The translations under genes were made by a program, and so were the position numbers. The notes beneath the pieces were generated by a model. It had not been told where the DNA came from. It did not search any database and worked only from the letters and a program-made list of their open reading frames with translations. A stretch of DNA of 64,000 bases from an uncultured bacterium (lineage in GTDB: Bacteria > Hydrothermota > Hydrothermia > B15-G9 > WFZT01): contig CAZNDM010000062.1 of the NCBI GenBank assembly GCA_964571845.1, forward strand, positions 18,258 to 82,257. Direction: 5' to 3'. How positions within the stretch are numbered: position 1 is the stretch's first letter; every line of letters begins with the position of its first letter. Positions 6,060 to 57,671 of the stretch are shown piece by piece.

Positions 6060-6470
6060 ATGAACCTGCTGATGATAACTCTGATAATGCTTGCAGGACC
6101 AATGAACATCCCAGTCAAAAAGTTGATCGTGTCTCCCACCCTGCAGGAGAAGCTGGAGTTAAAGGGAAACCAGTTAAATGAGATCAAAAACATCTGGTTT
6201 GAAAGCCGGGAAAAACTTATACCCCTGAATGCTCGCAGGCAAAAACTTCTGCTCGATATAGAAAAGGAGTTGAGCAAAGACGATGTCAATCTTGAGAATT
6301 TGAAGAAGCTATACGATGAACTTGGAGATGTTATCTCCAGGATCAGGTATATCAAAACAAAGACGATGGTTAGTGTGAAGCAGGTACTGACGAGGAAACA
6401 GCTGATAAAGCTCGAAGAGGAAAGGTTGAGATGGAAGAGATATCCTCCCCCACTTCCTTACCATAAATAA
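6060..6470 (+). CDS. Putative periplasmic coiled-coil protein with LTXXQ-type motifs (Spy/CpxP-like)
   Basis: A signal peptide is followed by a helical protein of low complexity. VLTRKQLIKLEE resembles the LTXXQ motif of the Spy/CpxP periplasmic chaperone family. A strong RBS (GGAGGTGAAAGAATG) precedes it. The family assignment is tentative. Confidence 0.4.
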   Translation: MNLLMITLIMLAGPMNIPVKKLIVSPTLQEKLELKGNQLNEIKNIWFESREKLIPLNARRQKLLLDIEKELSKDDVNLENLKKLYDELGDVISRIRYIKTKTMVSVKQVLTRKQLIKLEEERLRWKRYPPPLPYHK

Positions 6471-6475
6471 AAAGA

Positions 6476-6510
6476 GGGGGCGGGGCGCGCGTTCCGCGCG
6501 CCCCGCCCCC
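6476..6510. terminator. GC-rich perfect palindrome hairpin (16-bp stem, 3-nt loop) between convergent genes, a probable bidirectional terminator
   Basis: GGGGGCGGGGCGCGCG-TTC-CGCGCGCCCCGCCCCC was read directly. It lies 6 bp after the stop of 6060..6470 (+) and 22 bp after the stop of the S8 protease gene (-). Confidence 0.6.
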
Positions 6511-6531: not shown

Positions 6532-9402
6532 CTATTTAACTATCATCAACCTCTGAATAGCTCTCGTCTCCCCAGCTCTAAATTCTACAAAGTAAACTCC
6601 AGCTTTCAATCCGCGTAAGTTCATGTCTATCGTGTGGGGGCCAGCCCCAAGTGTTCCCCTGAACACCTTTCTAACCGCTCTTCCACTGATATCGTACAGG
6701 CTGATCTCAACATCCTGCCTGCTCGCGAGCGTGAAGCTCAATGTGCTGAACCCTCTTGTTACATTGGGAGCCAGCTTCAAAGGCACAAATCCGGGCTGAA
6801 CCTGACTCTCCTCAACACTAACAAGGTAGGCATGGTAGGCTGAATCAACATTGGCGTAGTAAGCACCAAGAGATACGCCACCGACAATTGCAAACACAAC
6901 TGAATCTTCCTGGCCCGGTGCAAGGGAGAATGGTCCAGCTGAAACAACGACACTGTAATCGTTTGCTGATGTCTGGTTACCGTAGTGCAAAATTCCCGAC
7001 ATGAATTTCCATTCATTCTGGTCCGTCATTCCCGTGTCCGGATAGACATAGGTTGGGTTGGAGATGGTGCTTATATTTGCAACATTGTCCCTTGGATAGA
7101 GCAGGGTTATACCAACTGCGGGGCTGTAGTTCAGGGGCGTCATGAAAGCTGTGTACCTTGTAGTGTCAACAAAGGCGAAGTTCTGGGATGGATCCTGCCC
7201 TATATCAAAGTCAATAAACTGAGCTGCATAGAGGTTATCAAGTGATGATGTGCCGTTGTTTCTGAAAACATACTTCATTATCACAAAATCATTTATCCCA
7301 TCCCTTGAAAATCCGTAGGCTATCTGCTCGACAGTAACATTCTGTGGATTCGGGTGCCCGGAATCTGACATCATACCCCAGATCTCCTGATTCCCGACTG
7401 CTGGTGGAATGACATAGTAGAGCCTTCCAAGAGGATCCGTTGTATAAACCCAGTCTCCATCCTCTGTTCCGTGTTCATACCAGTTGTCAACGAGATATGT
7501 GGAGTCATTACCAAAGGCGAGTGAGCCATAGAAGAGTGTGTTGGATCCGTTCTTTGGATAAATAAACCCATTCCCCATCAGCTGATCTGAAGACATAAAG
7601 CCGATGCCGCCGTTGTCAGTTACTGTAAGGATGCAGTTCCCGGTGTCAATATTGGCAAAGTCGAATCTTGGAGTACCAATTTCAAGTGAAAATTCGAGGT
7701 CGGTGGTGTAAGAAGTTGAAGTTTCGATGTGGAGGACAAAGTTGACAGTGGTCCCGGATGGAGTTGAAGGTGAAACATAGAGGGTGAACGGATCTGCCTG
7801 GTTGCTCACTGTATCGTTGCGAGCAATATCGCCGAAGTTACCCACAGAGTCAAGGATTGTAACATCCTTTGAGCCGAGTCTTAGATAACCAACAGCCGAA
7901 TGGGCAGTAGAGTCAGCAAGATTGGCAAGGTAAACGATTACATTTGCAGTGTCTCCCGGATCCAGTCTTCCGTTGTTATCGTCCACGACAACATTGATCA
8001 GAGCCAGATACGGCTGATCCGGAGCCGGAGTTAGCTCTATTGCAGCAAGCACATCCAGACGGCCCCAGCCGTAGTCATTGTTCGGGAATGTGTATCCGGG
8101 CACATGGTAAGCGGAATTTGTAAGTATGGAATAAATCTGATAGTAATCGAGAACAGGGTTCTTGGACAGGATAAGTGCAATGGCGCCTGTAACATGAGGG
8201 GCTGACATGGATGTTCCGTCCCATGTCTGGTAACCGCCTCCGGGAACTGATGAGTAAATACTTTGACCTGGTGCCACTATGTCCGGTTTTATGAAATTCC
8301 AATCGGGTCTGCTCCAGTAGGTCTGATCATTCCAGGGATAAGCATTGGGAGCGGGTCCCCTCTGAGAAAAGCTCGTCACGGCATCTGTTCTCGTGGTTGC
8401 TCCCACACCGATTACAGTGGGATAGTTACCCGGTGAACTCGCCCTTATATGCGGGCAGTTCATGTCATAGTTTCCAATTGAGAAAACGGGGATAAGTCCA
8501 AGTGACCTTATTGTCCAGATTACATTCCAGTATGTGGTTGACATCGAGTCACATGAACCCCAGGAATTGTTTATAACCCTGAGGTTGACACCTGAGTCAA
8601 CCACGAGACTGCCGAACCACTGGAAAGATCTTGTAATCCAGCTTGAGTAACCGCCAGACGATGTAAACGCCTTGGCAGCCACAAACATCGCACCCGGGGC
8701 AACTCCTATGTCCCTTGTGAATGGTCCGTAACCGTCTCCTCCCAGTATGGTTCCCATGGTGTGGGTACCGTGACCATTGTCATCGTAAGGAGCGGGAAAA
8801 TTCCCATGTGTGGCATCATAAAAGTGTCCTGCAAACTTTCCAGAAAGCGCAGGATGTGATGTATCCACTCCGGTGTCGAGATTTGCAACTATTATCCCCT
8901 GCCCTGTGTAACCCAGCCTCCAGACACTATCCGCATTTATCTTACTTATGTTCCAATAAACAACTTTTGGATCAGCTGATTGGGTGTTACGGGCAGGTAA
9001 AGCTGTTAAAAACGCCTTACTGTCAAGCTCAATCCTCGCAACATCCTCTCTTTCCGCAAGTCTGTAAATAACATCCTTAGTAGCTTTGACATAAACAGCA
9101 TTGATAATCCAGAAACCCTCTTTTTCCATGACTCTGTCTGCATTCGCATCAAGGAATTCGAGAATCGGCCTCTGGGACTCCTTTGCGAGACTTCTGAGGT
9201 ACTCTACCTCAGTCTTCCTATCTCCCTTAAACATCTTTTCCAGATCCTGATAGGATGGCTGCTCTGCGGGGTACACCATCACTCTAATAAACTCGTCGCT
9301 GCCAGCTTTTTCCAGGACCTTCTGCAGATCCTCTGTAATCGTTGCCTTTGCGTTTAGTACTGTGAACATCAGCAAAGACAACACGACCATCAACTTCTTC
9401 AT
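6532..9402 (-). CDS. Secreted subtilisin-like serine protease (peptidase S8) with an I9 propeptide and a T9SS C-terminal sorting domain
   Basis: There is a signal peptide. The S8 catalytic triad motifs are present: DTGVDTSHPAL (Asp), HGTHTMGTILGG (His) and GTSMSAPHVTGAIALI (Ser). The C-terminus GVYFVEFRAGETRAIQRLMIVK is typical of a T9SS type-A CTD. Confidence 0.85.
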   Translation of the reverse strand: MKKLMVVLSLLMFTVLNAKATITEDLQKVLEKAGSDEFIRVMVYPAEQPSYQDLEKMFKGDRKTEVEYLRSLAKESQRPILEFLDANADRVMEKEGFWIINAVYVKATKDVIYRLAEREDVARIELDSKAFLTALPARNTQSADPKVVYWNISKINADSVWRLGYTGQGIIVANLDTGVDTSHPALSGKFAGHFYDATHGNFPAPYDDNGHGTHTMGTILGGDGYGPFTRDIGVAPGAMFVAAKAFTSSGGYSSWITRSFQWFGSLVVDSGVNLRVINNSWGSCDSMSTTYWNVIWTIRSLGLIPVFSIGNYDMNCPHIRASSPGNYPTVIGVGATTRTDAVTSFSQRGPAPNAYPWNDQTYWSRPDWNFIKPDIVAPGQSIYSSVPGGGYQTWDGTSMSAPHVTGAIALILSKNPVLDYYQIYSILTNSAYHVPGYTFPNNDYGWGRLDVLAAIELTPAPDQPYLALINVVVDDNNGRLDPGDTANVIVYLANLADSTAHSAVGYLRLGSKDVTILDSVGNFGDIARNDTVSNQADPFTLYVSPSTPSGTTVNFVLHIETSTSYTTDLEFSLEIGTPRFDFANIDTGNCILTVTDNGGIGFMSSDQLMGNGFIYPKNGSNTLFYGSLAFGNDSTYLVDNWYEHGTEDGDWVYTTDPLGRLYYVIPPAVGNQEIWGMMSDSGHPNPQNVTVEQIAYGFSRDGINDFVIMKYVFRNNGTSSLDNLYAAQFIDFDIGQDPSQNFAFVDTTRYTAFMTPLNYSPAVGITLLYPRDNVANISTISNPTYVYPDTGMTDQNEWKFMSGILHYGNQTSANDYSVVVSAGPFSLAPGQEDSVVFAIVGGVSLGAYYANVDSAYHAYLVSVEESQVQPGFVPLKLAPNVTRGFSTLSFTLASRQDVEISLYDISGRAVRKVFRGTLGAGPHTIDMNLRGLKAGVYFVEFRAGETRAIQRLMIVK

Positions 9403-10359: not shown

Positions 10360-10381
10360 GCGGAATTTTTTGGTAATTAGA

Positions 10382-10414
10382 GGGGCGGAGCGCCGGGAAC
10401 CGGCGCTCCGCCCC
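10382..10414. terminator. GC-rich palindrome hairpin (15-bp stem, GAA loop) downstream of the acyl-CoA dehydrogenase gene
   Basis: GGGGCGGAGCGCCGG-GAA-CCGGCGCTCCGCCCC lies 8 bp after the stop of 10422..11567 (-). Confidence 0.55.
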
Positions 10415-10421
10415 TCACACC

Positions 10422-11567
10422 TCATTTATTCCTCAAAAATGCTCTCGCTATTGTTAACCTGTGAGCTTCGCTCGTCCCCTCGTATATCTCCGTTATCTTC
10501 GCATCTCTGTAATGCCTCTCCACATCAAAGTCTTCTGTATAACCGTATCCACCGTGCACCTGTATGGCTTCTCTTGTCACCTTCATTGCGACATCCGACG
10601 CAAAGAGTTTGGCATAGGCTGAAGCAACCACATAATCCTCACCTCTGTCTTTCAAAAATGCTGCCTTGAGGTACAGGAGTCTTGCTGCCTCGATCAGCAT
10701 CGCCATATCAGCTATCTTCCACTGAATAGCCTGGAACTCAGCTATCGGTCTCCCGAACTGTTTTCTCTCTTTTGCATAAGCCACAGACTCCTCAAAAGCT
10801 GCACGAGCTATGCCCACTGCCTGTGCAGCTATTCCAATACGACCACCATCGTAGGCATCGAGGGCTATGTAAAATCCTTTGCCACGCTCTCCAAGCATGT
10901 TCTCTTCGGGAACCCTCATGTCCTCAAAAATAAGCTCTGCAGTTGAGGAAGCCCGTATTCCCAGCTTATGTTCAATCTTTCCGATGGAAAAGCCCGGAGT
11001 ATCTCTTTCAACGATAAAAGCGGAAAGTCCCTTGTGTCCGAGCTCAGGATCCGTTTTTGCAAAGATAAGATAGATACCAGCCTCTCTTCCATTCGTTATA
11101 AATATTTTCCTGCCGTTAATGACCCAGTATTTGCCATCCTTTACAGCCCTTGTCTTTATGCCAGAAATGTCAGTCCCGGCTTCCGGCTCCGTCATGCCAT
11201 GAGCACCAAGGACTTTACCAGAAGCGAGGAGTGGAAGATATTTCTTTTTCTGCTCTTCGGTCCCGTACTTCATTATAGGATCCACAACGAGGGAGGTATG
11301 TGCAGACATGATCACCCCGGTTCCCGCACACGCCCGTGAAATCTCTTCAACCATGAGGGCGTAACTGACAACATCCATACCAGCGCCACCGTACTCCTCC
11401 GGCACATAAACCCCAAACATCCCAAGTTCTGCCATTTTCTTTACAATTTCAGCCGGGAATTTCGCCTCTCTGTCGAGCTCCCTTGCAACAGGCTTTACCT
11501 CTTTTTCGGCAAATTCCCTTGCCATGTCTCTTGCCATTTTTTGTTCTTCTGTTAACTCAAAATTCAT
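10422..11567 (-). CDS. Acyl-CoA dehydrogenase (short/branched-chain, butyryl-CoA dehydrogenase-like)
   Basis: MNFELTEEQKMARDMAREFAEKEV... is an ACAD N-terminus. The ACAD middle and C-terminal domains are present, including the catalytic base region ...YEGTSE... The protein is full length at 381 aa. Confidence 0.9.
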   Translation of the reverse strand: MNFELTEEQKMARDMAREFAEKEVKPVARELDREAKFPAEIVKKMAELGMFGVYVPEEYGGAGMDVVSYALMVEEISRACAGTGVIMSAHTSLVVDPIMKYGTEEQKKKYLPLLASGKVLGAHGMTEPEAGTDISGIKTRAVKDGKYWVINGRKIFITNGREAGIYLIFAKTDPELGHKGLSAFIVERDTPGFSIGKIEHKLGIRASSTAELIFEDMRVPEENMLGERGKGFYIALDAYDGGRIGIAAQAVGIARAAFEESVAYAKERKQFGRPIAEFQAIQWKIADMAMLIEAARLLYLKAAFLKDRGEDYVVASAYAKLFASDVAMKVTREAIQVHGGYGYTEDFDVERHYRDAKITEIYEGTSEAHRLTIARAFLRNK

Positions 11568-17480: not shown

Positions 17481-18325
17481 AAGCAGGTCCTGAGTGCTTT
17501 CCGTGCGCACTCAACCAGGTTTTGAGGTTGATGCGCGCGGTTAATATGAACGACGAAACTATCCTTGACGCAATTAAAGAGGCCTGGGAATACATCAAGG
17601 GCCTTGACCTTAACTATTCACCGGCATACATTGCTACCCGTTCGATCCGAACGGGTAGCAAGTATTTTCCGGTGAAAGATCCATACCTTGAATTCAAGAG
17701 AGAACACAACTTAATAGCGAAAAAGGTACTCGAAGAAGTCAAGGACCGGGTTGAAAACACTTCTGACCCACTAAAATTTAGACTCATTCTCATGGCTTCG
17801 GGGAACATCATCGATCTCGGCACACAGGATAAATTCGATCTCGTGAAAACACTCGAGGCAAACTTTGACGCCGGCTTCGGAATTGATCACTATGAAATCT
17901 TCAAAGAAAAATTGAGCAATGCAAATAAATTTATGCTGATCGCCGACAATGCCGGTGAAGTGGTTTTCGATATCTACTTTCTCAAAAAACTGGATGTAAA
18001 AGAAAAAATCCTCGCAGTAAAGAGCGGACCTGTCCTGAACGATGTAACCATGTATGACCTCGAAGACCTTGATACAGAGGGGTTGAGAGTAATTGAGACG
18101 GGTTCAAATGCCCTCGGTGTGGATTTCAAAGAGGTTTCAGAGGAATTTCTTGATGAGTTCAACAGCTCGGACATTGTGCTTGCTAAGGGACACGCTAACT
18201 TTGAAACACTGGACGATGCACCAAGAGAAGTGTTTCTCCTGCTCCAGATAAAGTGTCAGGTGGTTTCAAGAAGACTTGGTAAACCGGTGGGTACACCTGT
18301 TTTTGCTCTGAATACGCTGATTTAA
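17477..18325 (+). CDS. DUF89 (ARMT1-like) family protein, a putative damage-control phosphatase
   Basis: The conserved DNAGE metal-binding motif is present (LIADNAGEVVFDIYFLKKL), the N-terminal region contains ECFPCAL, and the length is about 280 aa. A GTG start overlaps the EF-G stop (GTGA). Confidence 0.65.
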   Translation: MKAGPECFPCALNQVLRLMRAVNMNDETILDAIKEAWEYIKGLDLNYSPAYIATRSIRTGSKYFPVKDPYLEFKREHNLIAKKVLEEVKDRVENTSDPLKFRLILMASGNIIDLGTQDKFDLVKTLEANFDAGFGIDHYEIFKEKLSNANKFMLIADNAGEVVFDIYFLKKLDVKEKILAVKSGPVLNDVTMYDLEDLDTEGLRVIETGSNALGVDFKEVSEEFLDEFNSSDIVLAKGHANFETLDDAPREVFLLLQIKCQVVSRRLGKPVGTPVFALNTLI

Positions 18326-21075: not shown

Positions 21076-21645
21076 GAAATATTTTACCGGTGACCATTTT
21101 CCCTTTAACTTTGCGGAAAAAATCTTTTTCTCTCTTATGCTTGCGTAAGCCCATTTCGTAGCAAAAATCACACTGGCTCCTTTCCCGCTTTGTGAGAGGA
21201 ATCACTTCAAACTTCCACTCCTGCTTGCAGGAGGAACCACTACTAATCTTCTTTCCAGCAAGGCGAGAGGGATCATTTCCAATTTCCCCTCCCACACGGC
21301 GGGAGTGATCACTTCCAATCTCCCCTCCCGCACGGCGGGAGAGACCTTTCCAATCTCCCCTCCCGCACGGCGGGAGGGGACAAAGGGGAGGGCAAAAATA
21401 CCCTTCATTACTCTTCCAGTCAATTTTGTTCATTCTGCCCCCTCCTTAATCCTCCCCGACAAAGTGGGGGGAGGAGATTGATGAGCGTCCCCCACAAAGT
21501 GTTACCGTGTCCTGTGGGGGAGGGAGTCATTGGGAGCCCACAAGACATCCATTTTGTAGGGAAGGAATAAGTGTCCTCCCACAGTACCAAACACTCTGGG
21601 GAAGGAAGTTAAAAAATCACATGCTCCTTTTACCCTAAAGGATTT
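21076..21645 (+). repeat. Copy A of a three-copy composite intergenic repeat family (see copies B and C), forward orientation
   Basis: The 5' arm GAAATATTTTACCGG...CTTTGCGGAAAAAATCTTTTTCTCTCTTATGCTTGCG is shared with copies B and C. The internal array is three 35-bp units TTCCAATCTCCCCTCCCGCACGGCGGGAG(N6) at 21276-21382. The shared core is AAGGGGAGGGCAAAA...CTTCCAGYCAAT...CCTCCCCNACAAAGTGGG...AGATTGATGAG...CAGTACCAAA...AGTTAAAAAATCA..CTTTTACCCTAAAGGA. Confidence 0.6.
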
Positions 21646-21939
21646 CTCCGAAGATTCTCCTGCGAAGTATTAGCACCGGGAGGAAAATGTAGGTGGACCT
21701 TCCCGATAGGAGTAGGAATTGTGGAGATAGTATCATCACTTTAACCTCCCTCTATGACGCTAAAGGGTGTAGAAAGAATTAATCTTGAATCTCGGTGGAA
21801 ACGACACCAGAGAACCATGTGTAATGGAATCTCCGTTGCATGAATTGAAACAGTTGAAAAGAATGGGATTTGGGAACATGTGGGGGCATATGGATGTTTT
21901 TCCGATGCCCATTGGGCATTGTGGAATTTGGGAACATGT

Positions 21940-21970
21940 GGGGGCGGGACCGCTTCGCGGTCCCGCCCCC
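21940..21970. terminator. GC-rich palindrome hairpin (14-bp stem) at the 3' end of the minus-strand OMP gene
   Basis: GGGGGCGGGACCGC-TTC-GCGGTCCCGCCCCC sits 8 bp beyond the stop of 21978..22601 (-). Confidence 0.55.
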
Positions 21971-21977
21971 ACCCTCT

Positions 21978-22601
21978 TTAAAACACCAAAACCGGCCCAA
22001 GAGATATCGTGAAGATCTTTGTATTGATGTCGTTGTAATCCGTTGTCGTGAACACAAGATCGAAGTTCAGATTCAGGTCTATTCCAAGCTTCTTCCTCGG
22101 CTGCACATGGAATCCTGCACCAAAGCTCAGTCCCACCGAGTTGTGCGTCGCCTTATCCTTTGTACCCTGTCCCACATTTTTAACCTCCGTTGACACCATG
22201 TACAGACCACCTCCACCCTGGAGATAGGGCATAAGTGGCCTGTTGGGAAGTGTGAGATAGTATCTCACAATCCCTTTTATTGCCAGAATCTTGTCGTAAA
22301 CCTTCTGAACATGCGGATCTATCGTTCTGTTACCGGCTTTGTTTATCTTGTAGCTTGCATTGGATATACCAAGCATCGTGAGGATATTCTTTGTTAATCC
22401 AAAGGAGAAGAATCCTGTCAGGTTAAATCCATTTTCGCCTCCAAGTGCTATTCCCCTATCCTCAGGGAACATGTCGGGCATGTCACCAATGGGTATCCCG
22501 ATACCCGCATAACCGTGTACTGTGAATTTGTTCATGAAATTGTACGAATAAACATTTCCCGTGACCATAAACAATGCCAATATTACAAGGTATTTCCTCA
22601 T
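21978..22601 (-). CDS. Outer-membrane beta-barrel protein (OmpA-like small beta-barrel/porin family)
   Basis: A signal peptide (MRKYLVILALFMVTGNVYS) is followed by alternating amphipathic beta-strand patterning over about 200 aa, with a C-terminal aromatic residue (…LGPVLVF). Confidence 0.6.
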   Translation of the reverse strand: MRKYLVILALFMVTGNVYSYNFMNKFTVHGYAGIGIPIGDMPDMFPEDRGIALGGENGFNLTGFFSFGLTKNILTMLGISNASYKINKAGNRTIDPHVQKVYDKILAIKGIVRYYLTLPNRPLMPYLQGGGGLYMVSTEVKNVGQGTKDKATHNSVGLSFGAGFHVQPRKKLGIDLNLNFDLVFTTTDYNDINTKIFTISLGPVLVF

Positions 22602-26890: not shown

Positions 26891-28409
26891 CGTCAGATTC
26901 TTCGTAATCCTTCAGGTATTTGATCGCCTCTGGAATGTAGTTAATGAGATCCCCTGCAATCATCGTGTGTCTTGGCTGTTCGACAACACCAATGTCAGCG
27001 GCAAGGCCATGTAAAAATGTACCGAGTAACGCCGCTTTGACAGGCTCAACTCCCTGAGCAAGGAGACCTGAAATCATTCCCGTAAGGACATGACCGGTTT
27101 CCCCAGACGCAAGTCCTGGCGTGCCCGTAGAGTTTATCCATGTCCTCTCATCAGGTGAAAAGACAACTGCTGGCGCACCCTTTACGACCACAACGATACC
27201 GTTGTCTTTTGCAAATCTTACTCCTGCACGAGGGTCAAGTGGATTTCCCCGAATACCCTGCATGCTCAAAAGTTCTGCAAACTCTTTGTGATTCAACATC
27301 AGAATTCCCGGTGCCTCCCTGTTCCTCAGACAGTTCATGTGGATTCCCTTGAGCTGGTCAACCTGTGCGTCAATCAAAATTGGGCCTGGAAATTCCCTTA
27401 TTAACTTCAAAAAGGACGAAGATGTAAGCATCCCGGACAGGGCACCACGCGAAACAGTCAGTGCATTAAAATTCAACCCATAGTTGAAAATCTGCTGGAT
27501 AGAATCATCGTTAAAGATCCCGTCCCTATCCTGAACGGCGAGCTCCACAACATCAGGTCCCGGGGATGTAAAGACCCACTTATATTCCAGTGGTATGGTG
27601 ACATAAGCTGTGGCGGCTCCGGTCTTCACTGCCGCAAGTGATGCAACCACCATTTCTGCCATACTACCTATAAACAGCGCTTTTCCACCAGAAACACCGG
27701 TAATCATAAACTTCGCGGCATCCTCCTCCTCAAATGTGGACCTTTTAACGAATGAAGACACTATCTTTTCCGGAATTCCTGTATCTGCGACAACGAGCTT
27801 GCCGGTGTGTAACTTACCGGGATAAAAAAGATTACCTATCTTTGGGAAAACCATTGTGACAGTGAGATCCGCATAAACTGCCTCTCCCAGAACCTCGCCA
27901 CTCCATGGATTCACACCGGATGGGATATCCACAGAAAGGGTATAGGCACGGGATTCGTTTATCCAGTTTATAATCTCATTGTAAACACCCTTCACCCTGC
28001 CTCTGAATCCAGTTCCAAAAATAGCATCAACCACAAGATCAGCTCCAAGAATCTGACCTTTAACCTCCTCCTCGCAGGAAGTAACCTCGACCACCTTACC
28101 GCCAAGCCTCTCGTACAGCTTCAGGTTGCTCTTTGCGTCTTTCTTTAACCATCTCTTTTTTCCTATCAGAAAAACCGTTGTCTCTTTTGATTTTTCCAGC
28201 AAATACCTCGCTATTACAAGCCCCTCTGCACCATTATTTCCGGTACCGATTACGACAACAGACCTGTTAACAGGAAATTCTATTTCTTCAAGTAAAACGG
28301 AAAAGGCGGTCCTGCCGGCATTCTCCGTTAGTATGAGACTCTTCAATCCGAGCTCTTTTATTGCGGTTTCCTTTATTTTTTTCAGTTCTTCAGGTGTTAG
28401 TACATACAT
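26880..28409 (-). CDS. nnr: Bifunctional NAD(P)H-hydrate repair enzyme Nnr (epimerase + ADP-dependent dehydratase)
   Basis: The N-terminal YjeF-N domain carries VVIGTGNNGAEGLVIARYL. The C-terminal carbohydrate-kinase-like domain carries ...GDLVVDAIFGTGF... and ...HVLTGMISGLLAQG. Confidence 0.85.
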   Translation of the reverse strand: MYVLTPEELKKIKETAIKELGLKSLILTENAGRTAFSVLLEEIEFPVNRSVVVIGTGNNGAEGLVIARYLLEKSKETTVFLIGKKRWLKKDAKSNLKLYERLGGKVVEVTSCEEEVKGQILGADLVVDAIFGTGFRGRVKGVYNEIINWINESRAYTLSVDIPSGVNPWSGEVLGEAVYADLTVTMVFPKIGNLFYPGKLHTGKLVVADTGIPEKIVSSFVKRSTFEEEDAAKFMITGVSGGKALFIGSMAEMVVASLAAVKTGAATAYVTIPLEYKWVFTSPGPDVVELAVQDRDGIFNDDSIQQIFNYGLNFNALTVSRGALSGMLTSSSFLKLIREFPGPILIDAQVDQLKGIHMNCLRNREAPGILMLNHKEFAELLSMQGIRGNPLDPRAGVRFAKDNGIVVVVKGAPAVVFSPDERTWINSTGTPGLASGETGHVLTGMISGLLAQGVEPVKAALLGTFLHGLAADIGVVEQPRHTMIAGDLINYIPEAIKYLKDYEESDDDF

Positions 28410-28625
28410 GCTGTTAACCTCAGTGTTAAATTTTAATCTTACGCGGGTAAAAATACCACGAAGGATGTTAAACAGCTGTTAATCTGATGCAGGGGATATA
28501 CCAGCAGGTGATTTCCACAGGTAATTGATTTAATTGCAGAAGTAGGTTTAACGCTCGGGTAAGTTGATAGCGGGTTTTTGTATTGACTAAGTTGGTGGGG
28601 CGTTTCCTTTAAAGAGGTATTAATA

Positions 28626-28670
28626 AAAGGTGGGTGGGGCGCGCGCGAAGCGCGCGCCCCACCCACCTTT
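28626..28670. terminator. GC-rich palindrome hairpin (~20-bp stem) flanked by an A-run and a T-run, a terminator of the large S8 protease gene
   Basis: AAAGGTGGGTGGGGCGCGCG-CGAAG-CGCGCGCCCCACCCACCTTT lies 5 bp after the stop of 28675..32169 (-). Confidence 0.6.
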
Positions 28671-28674
28671 ATTA

Positions 28675-31600
28675 TCACTTCAGTATCACAATCTTCCTCG
28701 TCTTACTGTAATTTCCAGCCTCAATGCTCAAAAAGTACACTCCTCCACGAATCTTTTCCGTACTCCAGTCGATACTGTGGTTTCCTGCCTCCATCCTTCC
28801 CTCGTACAACTTTGACACAACCCTGCCACTCACATCATACAGTCTAATTTTGACATCCGTTGCCGCTGGAATAACAAATGAGATCTTCCCTCTTCTAACC
28901 ACTGGATTCGGTGTTACATCGAAGAAGAACTTTACGGGTTTCAGAGCACCCTCACCCACGCCCACTGTCGGGGGCAATGTCGTGAATTTGATGGCTTTAC
29001 CTGCTGATATTCCAGTTGCGAGTCTATCCGAGACACCGTCATAGTAAATCTGGATTCCGTCTGTTTCTGAAGCGTTTTCAATTCCTGTCGTGAAATCATC
29101 CTGCATTGGATCAGATAGATACTGGAAAACAATTTCCCCGTCACCTGTAGGTGTTGTGTAGTACATTGGATCGTAGAGGAGCACCTGAAATGTCTCCACC
29201 TCGTTTGAATGGGCAAAATGAGGCACCTGATACCATTCCACGATAAAAATGTGGTTGTCAGAGTCATAGTAATATGCGACCTGGCCACCTCTTGAGGGAT
29301 TGAGGTCGTCCCACAGGGGAGCAATCATATTTGATGGACCATCACTGTTGGGTATGCCAGAGTTGCTGAAATCTCTTGCATTCTCACTGCCCATAGCAAG
29401 GTTTCCATTTGATCCGATGGTAATCTGGGTGAATGATGCACCGTAATAGTTAAATGTGAATGGGAGATTAACGAGCTGGTCATCGTCGTCTCCGAGCTGG
29501 ATGACCGTTCCGCTACCGCCAGCCGCAGGTGCAATTTCTATCCAGTTGAAAACCGGTGCCGGTGAATAGGAAGAGTCGTTGTTCTCGTAAGCATAATAAC
29601 CGTAGCTATCAGGTCCTGATGGATCATTCACCGTCATCTGACCTATTGTGAGTGTGTAATTAATACTCTTGGTATAACCGGATGAATCCACGAGTGTAAT
29701 TGTCAGTTCTGCACTATGCTCTCTCGGTGTGGATGGAGATGCCTGAACAAAGAACATTGTGTCGCTCACCTCGCCTCCGTTGGCTGGAATAGAGGGGATA
29801 AAGGCGGTCGAATCAAGGACCTGGAGAAATGTGTCCTGTGTGGACAGAGAGACTGAGACATTGCCGGCGTCCTGTGTCCCAATATTCCTAAGAGTTACGA
29901 GAAACCTTCCACTTTCACCGGGATCGATCACCCCATTTCCCGACTCATCAAGAACGGAGATTCCGGTAAAGCTAACAACCACACCTTCAAGCGGCAGGTC
30001 CTTTTCAATGGTGAGATCGTCGATATACCATCCGTCCCGTGTAATTGAGCCGTCAGAGGTAATGAGAAATCTGATGTACACGGTGGTTGAACCCACAAAG
30101 GGCGAGAGATTGACAAAAACCTCCTCCCATGTGCTTTGCGAGCCGTTAACAGAAGCGAGATTTGTCCATTCGCCATTGGGGTCTGTCGCAGCCTGGACAT
30201 AACCATAGTCAAAGCCACTTTCAAATTCATACCTCTGCCAGAAGTGGAGTCTTGCGAAGTAGGCGTCAGAAAGATCTATTGGTGTCGCAAGCATTGCATA
30301 GTAATTTGCGTTGTTTGGATACTGACCATTGGGGGAATCGGTGAGACTTCCATTCCCCGAATGGGCGTAAGATGTGGTGATTCCCCAGCTACCTGTTAAT
30401 ACCCAATCGGGAAGAGAAGACTCAAAGTCCTGTACATACCAGGGGTAGTAAGTGGGCTGTCCTATGACAACCGTAATCGTGTCAACTTTGGTGTATCCGG
30501 TCATGGATGTGTCACTACCTGTAATTGTGATGACAAATTGAGCGGCGAGACCGGCACGCCATGTTGAATCAACTGAAAATGAGAATCCATCTCCTGAAAC
30601 TATAGAGTCATGCGGGATATCACCGTAAAATGAGGAGTTGTCCGTGATCGTGATAAGCGGGTTATCGGTTGATATCGTGGCATTCACATTGAGGACATCA
30701 AGTCCCAGGTTTCTAAGAGGAATGGTCATTGTTACACTCTCTCCTGGATCCGGCATACCATTACCATTTCCAGACGCATCATCATACACAGGTTGAAGTA
30801 ATCTCAGGTAAGGAGCGTCAAGAGTCGGAGTTGATTCAATGACTTTCAGGGCATTTATACGACCCCACCCATAGTCGTTGTTGGGATAGGTATTGCCTGC
30901 TGGATGATCGACACCATAGTTTGTGAGAATATCATAAATGGTACTGTAGTCGAGAGATGGATTGAGTTCAAACATAAGGGCAATGACACCGGTTACATGG
31001 GGAGTGGCCATGGATGTTCCATCCCAGCTTTCGTAACCGCCGCCGGGTGTGCTTGATCTAACATTGACTCCTGGAGCTGAAATATCGGGCTTGATAAAAT
31101 TCCAGTCTGGTCTTGACCAGAGTGTCGTATCTGACCAGGGGTACTGGTTGGGAGCCGGTCCCCTCGAGCTAAAGCTCGCAATATTATCATTAATGTCTGT
31201 TGCTCCAACTCCGATAACATTTGGAAAGTTACCGGGTGTTCCAGCAGATCCACTACCGGGACCAGAATTACCGCTGGCAAAAACCGGGATTATGTCAAAC
31301 TCGTGCCAGGCCCTCACAAACGGTAAAAAGGTCGTGTCTGTTTCATCCGTACTACCCCATGAATTAGACACAGCCTTTATGTCCACACCTGAATCGACTT
31401 TCAAGGACACGAACCACTGGAAACATTCGATAATATCCTGATCCTGCCCGCTTCCTCCGGAATTAAATGCCTTGGCAGATGCAATCTGTGCCCTGTAAGC
31501 CACGCCAATGTCGTTTGTAAACGGACCAGGTCCATCACCACCAGCAATTGTCCCGGCCACATGTGTTCCGTGGCCGTGATCGTCATACGGGGTCGTCCTG

Positions 31601-32169
31601 TCATTCACAGCATCAAAGAAATAACCTGAGAAGTTGCCAGATAAGGCAGGGTGTGATGGATCTATTCCAGTGTCCATTGTTCCGACTATTACACCGTCTC
31701 CTGAGAGGCCATAGGCAGACCAAACTGAATCTGCTTTTATTTTCGTGATATTCCATTCAACAGACTTCTCCTGGGGTATGTCTTTAAAAGACTTTTTGGG
31801 CATAATGATGTGTCTCTCACGCACAACATCGACGAGAGCGACATCTTCTCTCTTCGCAAGCTCGACAATTACCTCTGGTGTGGCTTTGACATATAGCATG
31901 TTCACAAGCCAAAAACTCTCATACTCGGCAACATCTTCGGAACTCAGGAATGATATGACATCCCTCTGTGAATTCCTTGCGACGGTTTTCAGGACTTCGG
32001 CTTTGGCTTTGTAGCCTTTAATACCTGAAAGGTCCGCCTGCTGTTTCATCCAGACAAGAGCCTGAATACTCTCTCCAGGCCCTGCCTTGCTCAGTTTCTC
32101 CATCATGGCATCAGAAAGTTTCCCTGCATACAGGGAAGTTACCATGACCAGTGCAAGCAGATACTTCAT
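28675..32169 (-). CDS. Large secreted subtilisin-like serine protease (peptidase S8) with an I9 propeptide, extra beta-rich domains and a T9SS C-terminal sorting domain
   Basis: There is a signal peptide. The S8 motifs are DTGIDPSHPAL (Asp), HGTHVAGTIAGGDG (His) and GTSMATPHVTGVIALMF (Ser). The C-terminus GGVYFLSIEAGNYSKTRKIVILK is a T9SS CTD. Its N-terminal half is paralogous to 6532..9402. Confidence 0.85.
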   Translation of the reverse strand: MKYLLALVMVTSLYAGKLSDAMMEKLSKAGPGESIQALVWMKQQADLSGIKGYKAKAEVLKTVARNSQRDVISFLSSEDVAEYESFWLVNMLYVKATPEVIVELAKREDVALVDVVRERHIIMPKKSFKDIPQEKSVEWNITKIKADSVWSAYGLSGDGVIVGTMDTGIDPSHPALSGNFSGYFFDAVNDRTTPYDDHGHGTHVAGTIAGGDGPGPFTNDIGVAYRAQIASAKAFNSGGSGQDQDIIECFQWFVSLKVDSGVDIKAVSNSWGSTDETDTTFLPFVRAWHEFDIIPVFASGNSGPGSGSAGTPGNFPNVIGVGATDINDNIASFSSRGPAPNQYPWSDTTLWSRPDWNFIKPDISAPGVNVRSSTPGGGYESWDGTSMATPHVTGVIALMFELNPSLDYSTIYDILTNYGVDHPAGNTYPNNDYGWGRINALKVIESTPTLDAPYLRLLQPVYDDASGNGNGMPDPGESVTMTIPLRNLGLDVLNVNATISTDNPLITITDNSSFYGDIPHDSIVSGDGFSFSVDSTWRAGLAAQFVITITGSDTSMTGYTKVDTITVVIGQPTYYPWYVQDFESSLPDWVLTGSWGITTSYAHSGNGSLTDSPNGQYPNNANYYAMLATPIDLSDAYFARLHFWQRYEFESGFDYGYVQAATDPNGEWTNLASVNGSQSTWEEVFVNLSPFVGSTTVYIRFLITSDGSITRDGWYIDDLTIEKDLPLEGVVVSFTGISVLDESGNGVIDPGESGRFLVTLRNIGTQDAGNVSVSLSTQDTFLQVLDSTAFIPSIPANGGEVSDTMFFVQASPSTPREHSAELTITLVDSSGYTKSINYTLTIGQMTVNDPSGPDSYGYYAYENNDSSYSPAPVFNWIEIAPAAGGSGTVIQLGDDDDQLVNLPFTFNYYGASFTQITIGSNGNLAMGSENARDFSNSGIPNSDGPSNMIAPLWDDLNPSRGGQVAYYYDSDNHIFIVEWYQVPHFAHSNEVETFQVLLYDPMYYTTPTGDGEIVFQYLSDPMQDDFTTGIENASETDGIQIYYDGVSDRLATGISAGKAIKFTTLPPTVGVGEGALKPVKFFFDVTPNPVVRRGKISFVIPAATDVKIRLYDVSGRVVSKLYEGRMEAGNHSIDWSTEKIRGGVYFLSIEAGNYSKTRKIVILK

Positions 32170-32170
32170 A

Positions 32171-32455
32171 CTAACCTCCTTTTAGTGCTGAAATTAACAA
32201 AATTAAGCCTATAAGGACAAAAATTGCCCCTGTTATCAGATTTATTATCCTGTGGGGGATGGTGTTTCCGAGCAGGGTTCCGGCAGCTATTGACAGTACC
32301 GATGCAGCCATAAATGCGAGTGTGGCAGAAACAAAAATACTGACTCGACTGATCTCTGGATGTGTTGAAAACAGGAATGTTGTTATGTTGGTCTTATCCC
32401 CAAGCTCTGCGAGGAAAACGGTTATAAAAATTAGGAAGAAAACCTTCAGGTTCAA
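32171..32455 (-). CDS. UPF0016 (GDT1/TMEM165/MneA-like) single-domain membrane protein, a putative Mn2+/Ca2+ transporter half-unit
   Basis: AELGDKT matches the E-x-G-D-(K/R)-(T/S) signature of UPF0016. The protein is 94 aa with three TM helices, i.e. one repeat only. Confidence 0.7.
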   Translation of the reverse strand: MNLKVFFLIFITVFLAELGDKTNITTFLFSTHPEISRVSIFVSATLAFMAASVLSIAAGTLLGNTIPHRIINLITGAIFVLIGLILLISALKGG

Positions 32456-32458
32456 AAA

Positions 32459-33043
32459 CTAATCAACTCCTTTACCGAATGCCTCTTTTTCCCTTTCAAT
32501 GAAATCTTCAAGAAAATTTGCAACAAATTTGTAAAATTTGAGTCTTGCCTCACTTCTGAGGTCCGCAATAAAGTCAGGCACCCATTGAAGAATATGCTCC
32601 TCAAAGAACTCTCTGGCGAGATCAAGATCACCTTCTTCCAGCAAAAATCGCATAAAATCCAGCTCGTAGGATATGTGATCCGGGAGATCCTCTTCGGGGA
32701 TCATAAGGTTGTAAAGTGAATAGTACTTCGACACCTCCTCTGCATAGTCTCCCATCAACAACATTTCTCTGTATGCAGATTCATATGGTGGACACGGTAA
32801 GGTGGGAAAGCTATTGATAAACAGTCTCGTGTGTTCTGCCTGAAGTTCCTCAGGTGGAAGGGTCCTGAGCTCGTCAATTGCCTCACTAAATTGAAAAATA
32901 AGATTCTCAGCCTCAGAATACTCCTGAAGGACATCCTGAATGTAGTCTTCGATTTCGTTCAGTTTCTCGAAAAATTCCTCGTCAGGATAGAAAAACAGCT
33001 GGCTCAGGATCCTGTAGATACGAGCTCTATCATCAACATTCAT
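32459..33043 (-). CDS. TorD/DmsD-like redox-enzyme maturation chaperone (putative)
   Basis: EEDLPDHISYELDFMRFLL matches the E-P-x-DH...L.FM motif of the TorD family, and the protein is all-helical at about 195 aa. The likely start is MNVDDRARIY, at Met27 of the tracked ORF. Confidence 0.5.
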   Translation of the reverse strand: MNVDDRARIYRILSQLFFYPDEEFFEKLNEIEDYIQDVLQEYSEAENLIFQFSEAIDELRTLPPEELQAEHTRLFINSFPTLPCPPYESAYREMLLMGDYAEEVSKYYSLYNLMIPEEDLPDHISYELDFMRFLLEEGDLDLAREFFEEHILQWVPDFIADLRSEARLKFYKFVANFLEDFIEREKEAFGKGVD

Positions 33044-33194
33044 GGTGGTTAATTTTAATGCCAAATAAATAATGGTCAACCATCCCGGACATTTGGAAAA
33101 TATCAAACCACTTCTTCTCAAAAAACTTTTTATCGAACAGCCTCACCGTCCTGTGACACGAGCATTTGTAGAATTTTATTCTGCGAGGAATCTA

Positions 33195-33235
33195 TTTTTG
33201 ACCTGAAAGGTGGAACATATTACAGTCATGGTATA
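33195..33235 (+). promoter_or_regulatory. Candidate promoter for the envelope operon (TTGACC ... extended -10 TGGTATAAA)
   Basis: tttttgacctgaaaggtggaacatattacagtcatggtataaaatt lies about 40 nt upstream of the AGGGAGG RBS and ATG at 33273. The fit to consensus is weak. Confidence 0.25.
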
Positions 33236-33272
33236 AAATTTGTGGACGCTATTCAAAAGGGAGGTTTCGTGC

Positions 33273-34415
33273 ATGATTGAACTATTGCGAAATTTAACTA
33301 TCCTCGTGCTGGTTTCATTAAAACCAGCTCCGGCAACCAATGTTAGAGCCTTTGACACTCCCAATGATGCTGGAGGAAGTGTTATCGTAAAATGGGACCT
33401 CTCAAAAGACGATTCTATCGTGACAAAGTATGAGATCATCAGGATCGTGGGGAGTCCTGATGGCAAAAGGGTAACTGCTGGATTTGTACTTCGTGGTACA
33501 AACACTTACAGGGATGTGGATCTTAAAAACGGTGAAAAATACTACTACATGGTTAGGACATGGGCAGACGGAGAATATTCGGACTCTGAGATAACAGCTG
33601 AGCCAGCGATACCCCGTCCCCAATGGTTCCATACCAAACGAGTCGTTGCACTTATCATCCTCCTCGTATTCGGGTCCCTGTTTTTCTATTACTTGAAGCT
33701 GGCAAAAGAAGGTGCTCCACTCTGGATCAGAAAGATTGCCGGTCTTGAGGCAATTGATGAGGCTGTTGGTAGATCAGTTGAGATGGGACGGCCTATTCTT
33801 TACATCCTCGGACTTGGATTCATATCAGACATACCGACCATTGCAGGTCTTGCCATACTTAAGAGAGTTGCCAAAAAGGCCGCTGAATACGAGGCAGATA
33901 TTATTGTTCCCAACTATGATCCCATCGTGATGGTTGCTGCGCAGGAAACGGTAAAGGAAGGATACATGGAAGCAGGAAGGCCCGATCTGTTTAACGAATC
34001 AAATATTATGTTTCTCACTCAGGACCAGTTTGGGTACGCCGCCGGTGTTGATGGAATAATGGTAAGGGAGAAACCTGGAGCCATCTTCCTTCAGGGTCTA
34101 TTCTATGCTGAATCCCTTATCCTTGCTGAGACAGGGCACTCCATAGGTGCGATACAGATCTCCGGAACAACATCGGTAACCCAGCTCCCATTCTTTATTG
34201 CTGCAACAGACTACACACTTATCGGAGAGGAAATGTATGCAGCAAGTGCTTATTTAACGAGGGATCCACTGGCACTTTCTACGCTAAAGGCAGAGGACAT
34301 CATGAAAGCCCTATTTATCGGCCTCATGGCACTGGGCACAATTTTCGAAACTATCGCCCTTCTGACTGGTAATCCGGGTTTTCATGTTCTTAAAAACTTT
34401 TTCAACATGTTTTAA
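33273..34415 (+). CDS. Membrane protein with an N-terminal extracytoplasmic fibronectin type III-like domain, one TM helix and an uncharacterised ~230-aa C-terminal domain
   Basis: The start MIELLRNLTILVLVSL (signal-like) is preceded by an AGGGAGG RBS. An FN3-like beta-sandwich follows (VRAFDTPNDAGGSVIVKWDL...YEIIRIVG...GEKYYYMVRTWADGEYSDSEIT), then the TM helix VVALIILLVFGSLFFYYL. The C-terminal domain has no motif I recognise. Confidence 0.5.
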   Translation: MIELLRNLTILVLVSLKPAPATNVRAFDTPNDAGGSVIVKWDLSKDDSIVTKYEIIRIVGSPDGKRVTAGFVLRGTNTYRDVDLKNGEKYYYMVRTWADGEYSDSEITAEPAIPRPQWFHTKRVVALIILLVFGSLFFYYLKLAKEGAPLWIRKIAGLEAIDEAVGRSVEMGRPILYILGLGFISDIPTIAGLAILKRVAKKAAEYEADIIVPNYDPIVMVAAQETVKEGYMEAGRPDLFNESNIMFLTQDQFGYAAGVDGIMVREKPGAIFLQGLFYAESLILAETGHSIGAIQISGTTSVTQLPFFIAATDYTLIGEEMYAASAYLTRDPLALSTLKAEDIMKALFIGLMALGTIFETIALLTGNPGFHVLKNFFNMF

Positions 34416-34427
34416 CGGAGGAAGACT

Positions 34428-35213: not shown

Positions 35214-35217
35214 GAAA

Positions 35218-36036: not shown

Positions 36037-36037
36037 A

Positions 36038-37145: not shown

Positions 37146-37148
37146 AAC

Positions 37149-39058: not shown

Positions 39059-39059
39059 A

Positions 39060-39518: not shown

Positions 39519-39561
39519 ATCTTAACACATCAGGAGGGAAGTCCCTGAGGAGGAAGAAAAC

Positions 39562-41529: not shown

Positions 41530-41797
41530 AGGGCACGGTTCAAAAATTTAAGAAGGTGGTACACGAAAAATTCATGTCCACACCTGCGGGTGTTGGAATA
41601 ATTTTTTACATTGTAGAAAGATTCTCTTTCTGCTTGCAAGAAGATCCATCTATTCCCCAACTTTCAATTCATGAGAGAAAATCGAGGGAAGTTATCTTCT
41701 CCACAGTGTTAACGCACTGTGGAGAGAGAGTCGAAAAATACATTCCTTCTATTTCCGAAGCTTTTTCGAATAACCCTATGAACTCCTCTGGATGTTT

Positions 41798-42270: not shown

Positions 42271-42279
42271 ATGTACTTC

Positions 42280-45438: not shown

Positions 45439-45454
45439 CACTGCCTCCTTCAAG

Positions 45455-45493
45455 GTGGGGGCGAGGCGCGCTTTTAGCGCGCCTCGCCCCCAC
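45455..45493. terminator. GC-rich palindrome hairpin (18-bp stem, TTT loop) between convergent argG and pilin genes
   Basis: GTGGGGGCGAGGCGCGCT-TTT-AGCGCGCCTCGCCCCCAC lies 17 bp after the argG stop and 15 bp after the pilin-gene stop. Confidence 0.6.
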
Positions 45494-45507
45494 ATCACAC
45501 ATCCCAC

Positions 45508-56673: not shown

Positions 56674-56704
56674 GGGGGGCGACGCCCTTCGGGCGTCGCC
56701 CCCC
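56674..56704. terminator. GC-rich palindrome hairpin (14-bp stem) downstream of sucD
   Basis: GGGGGGCGACGCCC-TTC-GGGCGTCGCCCCCC lies 10 bp after the sucD stop. Confidence 0.55.
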
Positions 56705-56711
56705 TTCCATC

Positions 56712-57671
56712 ATGCCCCTCCATATCCCTAAATTTTTCTATAATTTCCTAAATTCCTCCATCATCGCTATCCTTCTTTCGATCTTCAGTAACAGCTGTCT
56801 AAATGAGACAGGTGAAACTCACGAGATCACATCCTGGGCGTATCAGCTACAAAATGCTGATCCCAACGAAGTGGCAACCTCCGGTTTTGACCTTGCCGTC
56901 ATAGATTACTCCCGTGATGGCACAGAGGAGGGTGAGTACTCACACGACGAAATTGCCACAATTGTTAGAGGAAATGTAACTCCGGTTGCCTACATAAGCA
57001 TAGGTGAGGCAGAAAACTACAGATTTTACTGGAATTCATCATGGGATAGCTTACCACCCCCATGGCTCGGTCCCGAAAATCCAAACTGGCAGGGCAACTT
57101 TGCAGTAAGATACTGGTATCAGGATTGGCATGAAATAATTTTCTCTTATCTTAATAGAATCCTGTCTCAGGGGTTCAAAGGCGTTTACCTTGACAAAGTT
57201 GATGAGTTTGAATTCTGGAGCGAGTTTGATACAACCATGTCAGAACAGGCTGCTGCCGATAGTATGATCAACTTTATTCTTGAAATAGCGAGGTACTGCA
57301 AATCACGAGCAGGTGAAGATTTTCTAATAATACCACAGAACGGAGAAACGCTGCTCAGATTTGATGATTCCGGTGAACTCTTGAGAGAAATTTCGGGCTG
57401 GGCAGTTGAAGATCTCTTCTACGATGGTCTCCTCCCCAATCCTCCTGAAGTCATATATGAACGTCTTCGTTACTTTAACATCGTTTTAAACTCCGGTAGA
57501 TTTGTCCTTTCAGTTGATTATGTGGATGATGGAACAGGATATCACGGTGAAAACAAAAACAGGATCGATGACTATCGTGCAAGAGCCATATCATCAAACC
57601 TGATCCCCTATGCTGCAAGATCCGACCGTGAGCTCGATGAGCTGAACATCATACCGGGTGTGCAACCCTGA
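56712..57671 (+). CDS. Putative lipoprotein glycoside hydrolase, GH114-like (endo-alpha-1,4-polygalactosaminidase / TM1410 family)
   Basis: A lipobox (…SIFSNSC) is followed by a (beta/alpha)8-type pattern. Motifs YWYQDW and GFKGVYLDKVD recur in the GH114/TM1410-like family. The assignment is by motif recollection only. Confidence 0.5.
   Translation: MPLHIPKFFYNFLNSSIIAILLSIFSNSCLNETGETHEITSWAYQLQNADPNEVATSGFDLAVIDYSRDGTEEGEYSHDEIATIVRGNVTPVAYISIGEAENYRFYWNSSWDSLPPPWLGPENPNWQGNFAVRYWYQDWHEIIFSYLNRILSQGFKGVYLDKVDEFEFWSEFDTTMSEQAAADSMINFILEIARYCKSRAGEDFLIIPQNGETLLRFDDSGELLREISGWAVEDLFYDGLLPNPPEVIYERLRYFNIVLNSGRFVLSVDYVDDGTGYHGENKNRIDDYRARAISSNLIPYAARSDRELDELNIIPGVQP

Follow-up and report, generated by a model that had tools for sequence, protein, structure and literature searches.

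Six GC-rich palindromes lie just past the ends of genes in the DNA analysed here, a 64,000-nt stretch from the genome of an uncultured bacterium (hereafter the window). The question that they raise is whether such structures terminate transcription, protect the 3′ ends of messages or belong to a family of dispersed repeats. An earlier note on this DNA had suggested a dedicated REP-like class of terminators or mRNA-stability elements, rather than ordinary intrinsic terminators.

Anatomy of the six palindromes

All six intergenic perfect inverted repeats described in the earlier note were found at the sites given there. The limits were exact for four of them, while H2 occupies 10380-10416 (not 10382-10414) and H3 occupies 21938-21972 (not 21940-21970). 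Pairing is indeed perfect, every stem being 100% Watson–Crick; the arms measure 14–21 bp, where 14–20 bp had been given, and the spacer is always 3 nt, where 3–5 nt had been given. As noticed before, all six share a GGGGCG near the 5′ base and a CGCCCC near the 3′ base, and the arms (76–100% GC) are much richer in GC than their surroundings (40–47% across the window, 44% GC DNA). Each hairpin starts 4–21 nt past a stop codon, in line with the proximity to stops reported earlier; divergent intergenic regions and supported coding regions are free of them.

H1 (6476..6510, both strands) has perfect 16-bp arms, GGGGGCGGGGCGCGCG-TTC-CGCGCGCCCCGCCCCC, and a fold energy of −42 kcal/mol. It lies 5 nt and 21 nt from the stops of ORF 6060-6470 (+) and of the S8 peptidase gene 6532-9402 (−). 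A U-tract at 6464..6475 on the minus strand reads TCTTTTTATTTA on that strand, with 7 Ts in 8; it is the only full U-tract (TCTTTTTATT) among the window hairpins. Hairpin and U-tract together make what appears to be a canonical intrinsic terminator of the S8 peptidase gene.

H2 (10380..10416) is a 17-bp perfect palindrome with the spacer GAA, located 5 nt past the stop of the acyl-CoA dehydrogenase gene (10422-11567, −). It has no U-tract, and just 20 nt beyond the hairpin the next gene probably starts, with an ATG at 10359-10357.

H3 (21938..21972) is a 16-bp perfect palindrome with the spacer TTC, 5 nt past the stop of a gene for an outer-membrane beta-barrel protein (21978-22601, −). It also lacks a U-tract, and its sequence is identical in three near-identical strain contigs. 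The 22-bp direct repeat that had been reported before this hairpin is real; it is exact over 20 nt (22/23 with flanks) and, rather than merely preceding the stem, overlaps it. The repeat (21868..21945) has the sequence ATTTGGGAACATGTGGGGGC, with copies at 21868-21887 and 21926-21945, of which the second shares the first 8 nt of the stem; a small palindrome, ATGCCCA-T-TGGGCAT, lies between the copies. It is kept in the strain contigs and is the sole case among the 16 hairpins checked.

H4 (28626..28670) is the longest, a 21-bp perfect palindrome with the spacer GAA and a fold energy of −48.6 kcal/mol, 4 nt past the stop of a gene for a 1164-aa S8 peptidase (28675-32169, −). Its AT-rich flanks lengthen the pairing to 28621-28674, with one bulged A, which gives it the shape of a bidirectional terminator. 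A 9-nt copy (GGTGGGGCG) of part of the 5′ arm (28633-28641) is present 31 nt upstream, at 28594-28602. It places a second CGCCCCACC past the hairpin on the minus-strand transcript, an echo of the larger direct repeat at H3; no flanking copies like these two were found at the other hairpins (16 checked).

H5 (45455..45493), an 18-bp perfect palindrome with the spacer TTT, sits 16 nt from the stop of argG (44260-45438, +) and 14 nt from that of a convergent pilin-like gene (45508-46077, −); neither strand has a U-tract. H6 (56674..56704), a 14-bp perfect palindrome with the spacer TTC, lies 9 nt past the stop of sucD (55795-56664, +) and has no U-tract.

The claim that most of the hairpins lack a U-tract is thus borne out: H1 has one on the minus strand, H4 has a weak one in the form of short A/T flanks, and H2, H3, H5 and H6 have none on either strand. 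Several of the palindromes had been placed between convergent genes; two are so placed (H1 and H5), and the case of H1 presumes that ORF 6060-6470, which matches no family, is real.

Two of the genes concerned, at 6532-9402 (−) and 28675-32169 (−), encode paralogous S8 subtilases with type-9-secretion C-terminal sorting domains, and each is followed by a hairpin with A/T flanks (H1 and H4). Among the genes that bear hairpins, those for secreted proteases, for an outer-membrane protein and for a pilin-like protein are over-represented, which would fit highly expressed messages.

A discrete class of gene ends

Chance does not produce such stems in DNA of this composition. In 100 dinucleotide-preserving shuffles of the window the longest perfect stem had 13 bp and stems of at least 12 bp numbered four in total; the window itself has six GC-rich stems of 14–21 bp. 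We also folded 100 nt around each of the 54 gene ends and scored the best 50-nt fold energy. The distribution is bimodal. Eight of the 54 ends fall at −37 to −48 kcal/mol; these eight are the six hairpins, two of which are shared by convergent genes. The remaining ends resemble 150 coding controls (−11.9 ± 2.8, minimum −19.9), save one at −24.9, and the same energy gap appears in a fold scan of the whole window. A consensus scan for canonical terminators between 1 and 20 kb returned 23 sites versus 19.8 ± 4.3 in shuffles, that is, no excess beyond H1. A gene end in the window bears a massive perfect hairpin or no recognisable structure at all.

Two further structures were seen outside this class. 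A perfect 14-bp hairpin of only 57% GC, TTGCTACCCGTTCG-ATC-CGAACGGGTAGCAA (17631-17661, −33 kcal/mol), lies within a gene for an ARMT1-like phosphatase; we regard it as coding rather than intergenic because the Pfam match of that gene starts at residue 5. A second structure (17489-17544, −24.9 kcal/mol) is located at the junction with an EF-G-like gene.

Host lineage and distribution of the hairpins

The genomes closest by argG are metagenome-assembled genomes (MAGs) labelled candidate division WOR-3, with 88–93% amino-acid identity. WOR-3 has been reported from hot springs and hydrothermal vents and has one cultured member, which grows at 70°C (PMC12285271, PMC12542636); that strain has 60.6% GC and belongs to a lineage different from that of the window (PMC12285271, PMC12542636). 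The IVYWREL fraction of the window proteins, 0.425 over 16,000 residues, predicts growth near 63°C, and the single tRNA of the window, tRNA-Gly, has 67% GC. By these sequence measures the host is probably thermophilic.

The window may span the replication origin region (~28000-46000). The minimum of the cumulative GC skew falls at ~28–44 kb, gene orientation changes from minus to plus at 33121/33240, and the rightward genes include a recF-like gene, dciA, gyrB, parA, parB and rsmG.

The close clade, in ~215 kb of sequence, has 16 distinct G-first perfect hairpins. Such hairpins numbered zero in 490 kb from 38 unrelated contigs of 38–50% GC and zero in ~102 kb of other WOR-3 lineages (sucD 82–85% identical; Hydrothermus pacificus). 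Mismatches and G-U pairs are absent from all 16 clade hairpins, and the spacer is 3 nt in 15 of them. When hairpins with at least 12 pairs and at most two mismatches were counted, the ratio of perfect to imperfect was 17:1 in the clade versus 8:36 in all other loci pooled (Fisher p = 2e-8), the exact counts being dependent on the threshold; one clade hairpin, in L067, fell out of this count because an AT-rich extension lowered its GC. The hairpins are thus restricted to the clade, and they are neither confined to one region nor derived from one duplicated sequence.

Two simpler regularities did not hold. The GGGGCG flavour is not clade-specific, as G-first hairpins based on GGGGC also occur past argG in unrelated alphaproteobacteria, namely Magnetospirillum and an Odyssella MAG (L053, L054 and L033). 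Nor does the reading of the spacer as TTC or GAA depend consistently on which strand carries the gene upstream. In Rfam 15, at the gathering threshold, tRNA-Gly was the sole match in the whole window; permissive scans of 21200-22000 and 41780-42460 gave no family for the hairpins or for a nearby repeated element (described below), and only chance hairpin matches around H3.

This distribution bears on the proposal of a REP-like class. REP and REPIN elements of proteobacteria are, like the hairpins, extragenic palindromes at 3′ ends, and REPs can stabilise upstream mRNA against 3′ exonucleases, as in the case of malE-malF. If the hairpins were mobile palindromes spread by a RAYT-type transposase, with secondary effects on mRNA, one could understand their common GGGGCG head, their presence in a single clade and the 20-nt direct repeat that adjoins H3. 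They do not, however, form a sequence family: the arms vary in length and sequence beyond GGGGC(G), and no conserved repeat is present. All are singletons, with none of the doublets or clusters of REPs, and all are perfect whereas REPs are imperfect. There is no sign of mobility; 15 of the 16 hairpins have no flanking duplication, and neither a Y1 (RAYT) nor any other transposase domain was present in ~40 window proteins, all hairpin neighbours included. The same gene ends are moreover occupied in different species whose neutral sites are saturated (see below), which is conservation in place and not recent spread. We regard a mobile origin as very unlikely.

Two related ideas were rejected as well. 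Target-site duplication is represented by the H3 repeat only; H4 has its 9-mer, and the other 14 hairpins have nothing longer than 8 nt. An uptake-sequence (DUS/USS) role was dismissed because 14 of the 23 GGGGCG matches in the window are in the six hairpins and the nine outside them are fewer than the 14 expected by chance, a deficit that also speaks against a repeat family.

Conservation at orthologous gene ends

Relatives have hairpins at four orthologous gene ends, with a perfect hairpin past argG in five species, past the acyl-CoA dehydrogenase gene in three, past sucD in four and past the S8 peptidase gene in two.

Past argG, a perfect GC-rich palindrome is present in the window, L004, L005, L008 and L067, in five different sequences. 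In L003, a strain 99.9% identical to the window, H5 differs only by TTA for TTT in its loop. A sequence of 18 nt, GCACTGCCTCCTT(T)CAAGG (45439-45454), extends from the last base of the argG stop up to the hairpin and is invariant in these five species, next to a hairpin that varies. It holds CCUCCU, which resembles an anti-Shine–Dalgarno sequence, and could pair with CTTGA..AGTGC in the final argG codons, enclosing the stop codon.

At the end of the acyl-CoA dehydrogenase gene, L069 has GGGGCCGCGCGCC-GGA-GGCGCGCGGCCCC in place of H2; the two differ by two transversions, each mirrored in the opposite arm, and by a remodelled stem apex. L070 has yet another hairpin, ~94 nt downstream of the gene. 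The gene downstream of H2 has a conserved N-terminus, RWL(E/Q)LLDNL, and its ATG is ~11 nt past the hairpin in L069. At the end of sucD, L149 and L150 have G-first hairpins with T-tracts, and L148 has a textbook C-first terminator made of an A-tract, the hairpin AAAGCCCCCCTTC-TTCA-GAAGGGGGGCTTT and then Ts. At the end of the S8 peptidase gene, the L069 ortholog of H1 (10710-10736) is located 20 nt beyond the stop and is followed by a T7 tail, the counterpart of the U-tract at H1.

Alignment of the five argG hairpins by MAFFT and RNAalifold was out of register owing to unequal stem lengths, which made its pair counts meaningless, and stems were instead compared from the loop outwards. Counted in this way, different Watson–Crick pairs occupy 7/12, 9/13, 9/11 and 3/12 positions, with no non-Watson–Crick pair; which positions correspond to each other is uncertain in this count. 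Between these genomes the flanking genes have reached saturation at four-fold degenerate sites (identity 0.28–0.38). Since a hairpin is kept at the same gene end while neutral sites are saturated, its retention reflects selection and not from shared ancestry of neutral sequence; the sequence comparison thus argues that both the structure and the position of the hairpins are under selection. At shorter range, L149 and L150 have a four-fold identity of 0.51 and still have 11/11 core stem pairs in common, with a different loop, which points to purifying selection on the stem. The idea that the hairpins change faster than neutral DNA, and hence are replaced or mobile, was rejected because the four-fold sites are already saturated (0.28–0.38).

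Changes mirrored in both arms could also come from mutation alone. Template switching in replication can create or repair perfect stems and produce two-sided changes in one step (PMC8794818), and hairpins that were by-products of it, with little or no function, would have the observed perfection and minimal spacer. A by-product is not expected to persist at the same four gene ends when neutral sites are saturated, nor to avoid coding and promoter regions, and we consider this explanation extremely unlikely. Template switching is nevertheless possible as a maintenance mechanism beside selection.

Probable termination and protection of 3′ ends

The placement at gene 3′ ends and the orthologous retention despite changes of stem sequence are what a terminator or mRNA-stability element, the function proposed in the earlier note, predicts. 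The other part of that proposal, a dedicated REP-like class separate from ordinary intrinsic terminators, is not supported: a repeat-family sequence is absent, and in about half of the 16 hairpins of the clade a good U-tract follows on the strand from which the upstream gene is read (H1, the L069 ortholog at 10710, L067, L149 and L150). Judged by sequence, these U-tract-bearing hairpins are canonical intrinsic terminators with unusually long stems.

We think it fairly probable that the six palindromes are transcribed into hyperstable RNA hairpins that mark and protect the 3′ ends of mRNAs in a WOR-3 bacterium, probably a thermophile, with a compact genome. Where a U-tract is present (H1 and, weakly, H4), the hairpin would act as a canonical, partly bidirectional intrinsic terminator. 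Because a perfect palindrome is identical on both strands, one element can serve both genes of a convergent pair. Where there is no U-tract (H2, H3, H5 and H6), the hairpin would most likely be unable to release RNA polymerase alone. Transcription would then end slightly downstream, probably by the action of Rho on a C-rich, G-poor tract, or would read into the next cistron (H2), and the hairpin would block 3′-to-5′ exonucleases, leaving a stable 3′ end on the upstream message. An element that has to work at ~60–70°C and only 4–9 nt from stop codons, where the base of the stem would be opened by the ribosome as it terminates, plausibly needs such extreme stability.

H2 cannot be a full stop, because the conserved start of the next gene is 20 nt on (~11 nt in L069); it would serve as a barrier between cistrons, keeping the upstream segment stable, or else as a partial attenuator.

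The sequence past the hairpins is compatible with a role of Rho. The 70 nt past H6 (56705..56774, +) have a C content of 0.34 and a G content of 0.03, and we infer that this tract is a putative Rho-loading (rut-like) region. The difference C−G is +0.20 past H3 (21868-21937, minus), +0.23 past H4 (28556-28625, minus) and +0.19 past H5 (45494-45563, plus). Over 17 strand-sites the 70 nt past the hairpins have a mean C−G of +0.147, versus 0.00 ± 0.10 in random 70-nt windows, and values of at least 0.15 occur at 10 of the 17 sites versus 7% of random windows; where genes converge, part of the skew comes from reading a coding region in antisense. It is absent at three sites (L004, L070 and the minus strand of H5), and it was sought in other intergenic DNA and was absent there. 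No Rho domain was seen among the window proteins scanned.

There are precedents for such an arrangement. In E. coli, transcripts terminated by Rho have their ends protected by stem-loops that lack U-tracts and have rut sites immediately beyond them (PMC6061677), and in bacteria generally perfect inverted repeats are over-represented after stop codons and ahead of Term-seq ends (PMC13155455). The window hairpins resemble the E. coli stem-loops in being stable, in having no Us after them and in the C-rich, G-poor tract downstream, where the E. coli rut sites were mapped. They differ in that their stems are far stronger and perfect, and their activity is deduced here from sequence.

Arguably, all the hairpins, including those without a U-tract, could terminate transcription if RNA polymerase in this lineage were able to let go at very strong hairpins without one, by itself or with NusA/NusG, as at the 'I-shaped' terminators proposed for mycobacteria and other lineages. 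These too are post-gene hairpins with no U-trail, in genomes where canonical terminators look rare, as they do here; the window, however, is AT-rich, and the hairpins stand out from it instead of reflecting an overall high GC. The position past the stop is the same for hairpins with and without a U-tract, the two kinds are interchangeable at orthologous sites, weaker canonical terminators are not seen at the other gene ends of the window, and the extreme strength of the stems could offset a missing U-tract at high temperature. Whether 'I-shaped' terminators can terminate is itself disputed: mycobacterial RNA polymerase, from the one lineage rigorously tested, requires a U-tract in vitro and gives no release at U-less hairpins even with NusA and NusG (PMC3993855). 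Full termination at H2 would silence the gene that starts 20 nt on, and a C-rich 3′ arm would leave a stable RNA–DNA hybrid. Release by the polymerase at hairpins of every kind therefore seems to us rather unlikely, and protection of 3′ ends, with termination where a U-tract exists, remains the preferred reading.

Features beyond the needs of an RNA hairpin

Some properties do not follow readily from a function in RNA alone. Stems of −37 to −48 kcal/mol, with no mismatch or G-U pair in 16 hairpins, exceed what such a function needs. The modal spacer of bacterial inverted repeats is 4 nt (PMC13155455), and here it is a constant 3 nt (15/16 clade hairpins). The perfection and the 3-nt spacer hint at an added process at the DNA level. 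The polarity of the stems, G-first and C-last, means that a strong rC:dG hybrid would form right past the hairpin, which is unfavourable for unaided release.

One form of this idea places the function itself in DNA, the palindromes forming cruciforms or single-strand hairpins for protein binding, replication pausing, recombination or insulation at gene ends. The symmetry is perfect, with no asymmetry of the G-U type even where one strand should be transcribed, the spacer is constant, and eight of the 16 hairpins read C-GAA-G on one strand. The C-GAA-G triloop forms very stable DNA mini-hairpins, d(GCGAAGC). The spacing of the GGGGCG half-sites, on the other hand, ranges from ~10 to 26 nt, which makes a fixed dimeric binding site unlikely; placement follows stop codons and not replication features; and the hairpins are interchangeable with ordinary U-tract terminators. 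We hold a purely DNA-level function to be highly improbable.

A second form would keep the RNA role and add to it. The palindromes might make up a clade-specific system whose perfection and minimal spacer are maintained by a one-step, self-templating DNA process, for example template switching or arm-to-arm conversion, with the conserved GGGGC(G)/(C)GCCCC base being read by a dedicated factor that ends or processes transcripts independently of a U-tract. We offer this as a speculation with a small chance of being correct.

Relation to known terminators

A GC-rich hairpin just past a stop codon is the hallmark that the palindromes share with canonical intrinsic terminators; at H1 and several of the orthologs a true U-tract is present as well, and H4 is flanked by A/T on either side. 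The use of one element for a convergent pair (H1 and H5) recalls canonical bidirectional terminators, and the L148 site is a textbook terminator. The differences are these: canonical stems typically have 5–14 bp and are often imperfect, whereas those described here have 14–21 bp and are always perfect; the spacer is 3 nt instead of the usual 4; four of the six have no U-tract; and G predominates in the 5′ arm and C in the 3′ arm. Exceptional stem length is also the striking feature of TerR of plasmid pLS20, a terminator that resists processive antitermination (PMC10325885). TerR, unlike the hairpins, has A- and U-tracts and a specific antitermination system, of which none is evident in the window.

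A second repeated element in the window

A non-coding element of ~400–500 nt is present in three copies, at ~21280-21700 (+), ~41870-42290 (+) and ~52650-53160 (−). It opens with a tandem array of 27–38-nt units, each a C-first hairpin, and closes this array with a perfect TCCCCTCCCGC-nnn-GCGGGAGGGGA. The conserved blocks that follow are AAGGGGAGGGCAAAAA, CTCTTCCAGTCAAT, a CCTCCCC-ACAAAGTGG-GGAGGAG hairpin, AAGTTAAAAAATCA and CCCTTTTACCC. Neither the Rfam scan of the window nor the permissive scans of 21200-22000 and 41780-42460 gave a match for it. The third copy is missing at the syntenic site in L008, and the number of hairpin units varies between strains that are 99.8% identical (L152 and L001 versus the window). 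It may be mobile, or it may be a structured RNA present in several copies.

A strain-level difference was seen at the edge of the second copy. At 41698-41725 the window has the hairpin TCTCCACAGTG-TTAACG-CACTGTGGAGA, where the 99.8% identical strain L001 has instead CCTCCCCCACGCCGC-TTC-GCGGCGTGGGGGAGG (124-156); the two contigs cease to align upstream of 41951.

Implications

From the sequences, the best reading is that the hairpins constitute a single class of RNA 3′-end elements, of a known kind, in a new lineage and with extreme quantitative features. They provide a first picture of transcript punctuation in an uncultured, probably hydrothermal WOR-3 lineage, in which gene ends are marked by few, discrete and extremely stable hairpins. 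In the annotation of these MAGs the hairpins can be used as markers of operon ends. The total absence of mismatches makes them a candidate case for the maintenance of stems by template switching, and if a self-templating process and a dedicated factor were indeed at work, the hairpins would represent a new route of 3′-end formation in a thermophilic, uncultured phylum. The mixture of hairpins with and without U-tracts at interchangeable orthologous sites bears on an old dispute, namely whether hairpins lacking a U-tract are true terminators or do no more than protect 3′ ends, and this WOR-3 lineage would offer a clean natural test set for that question.
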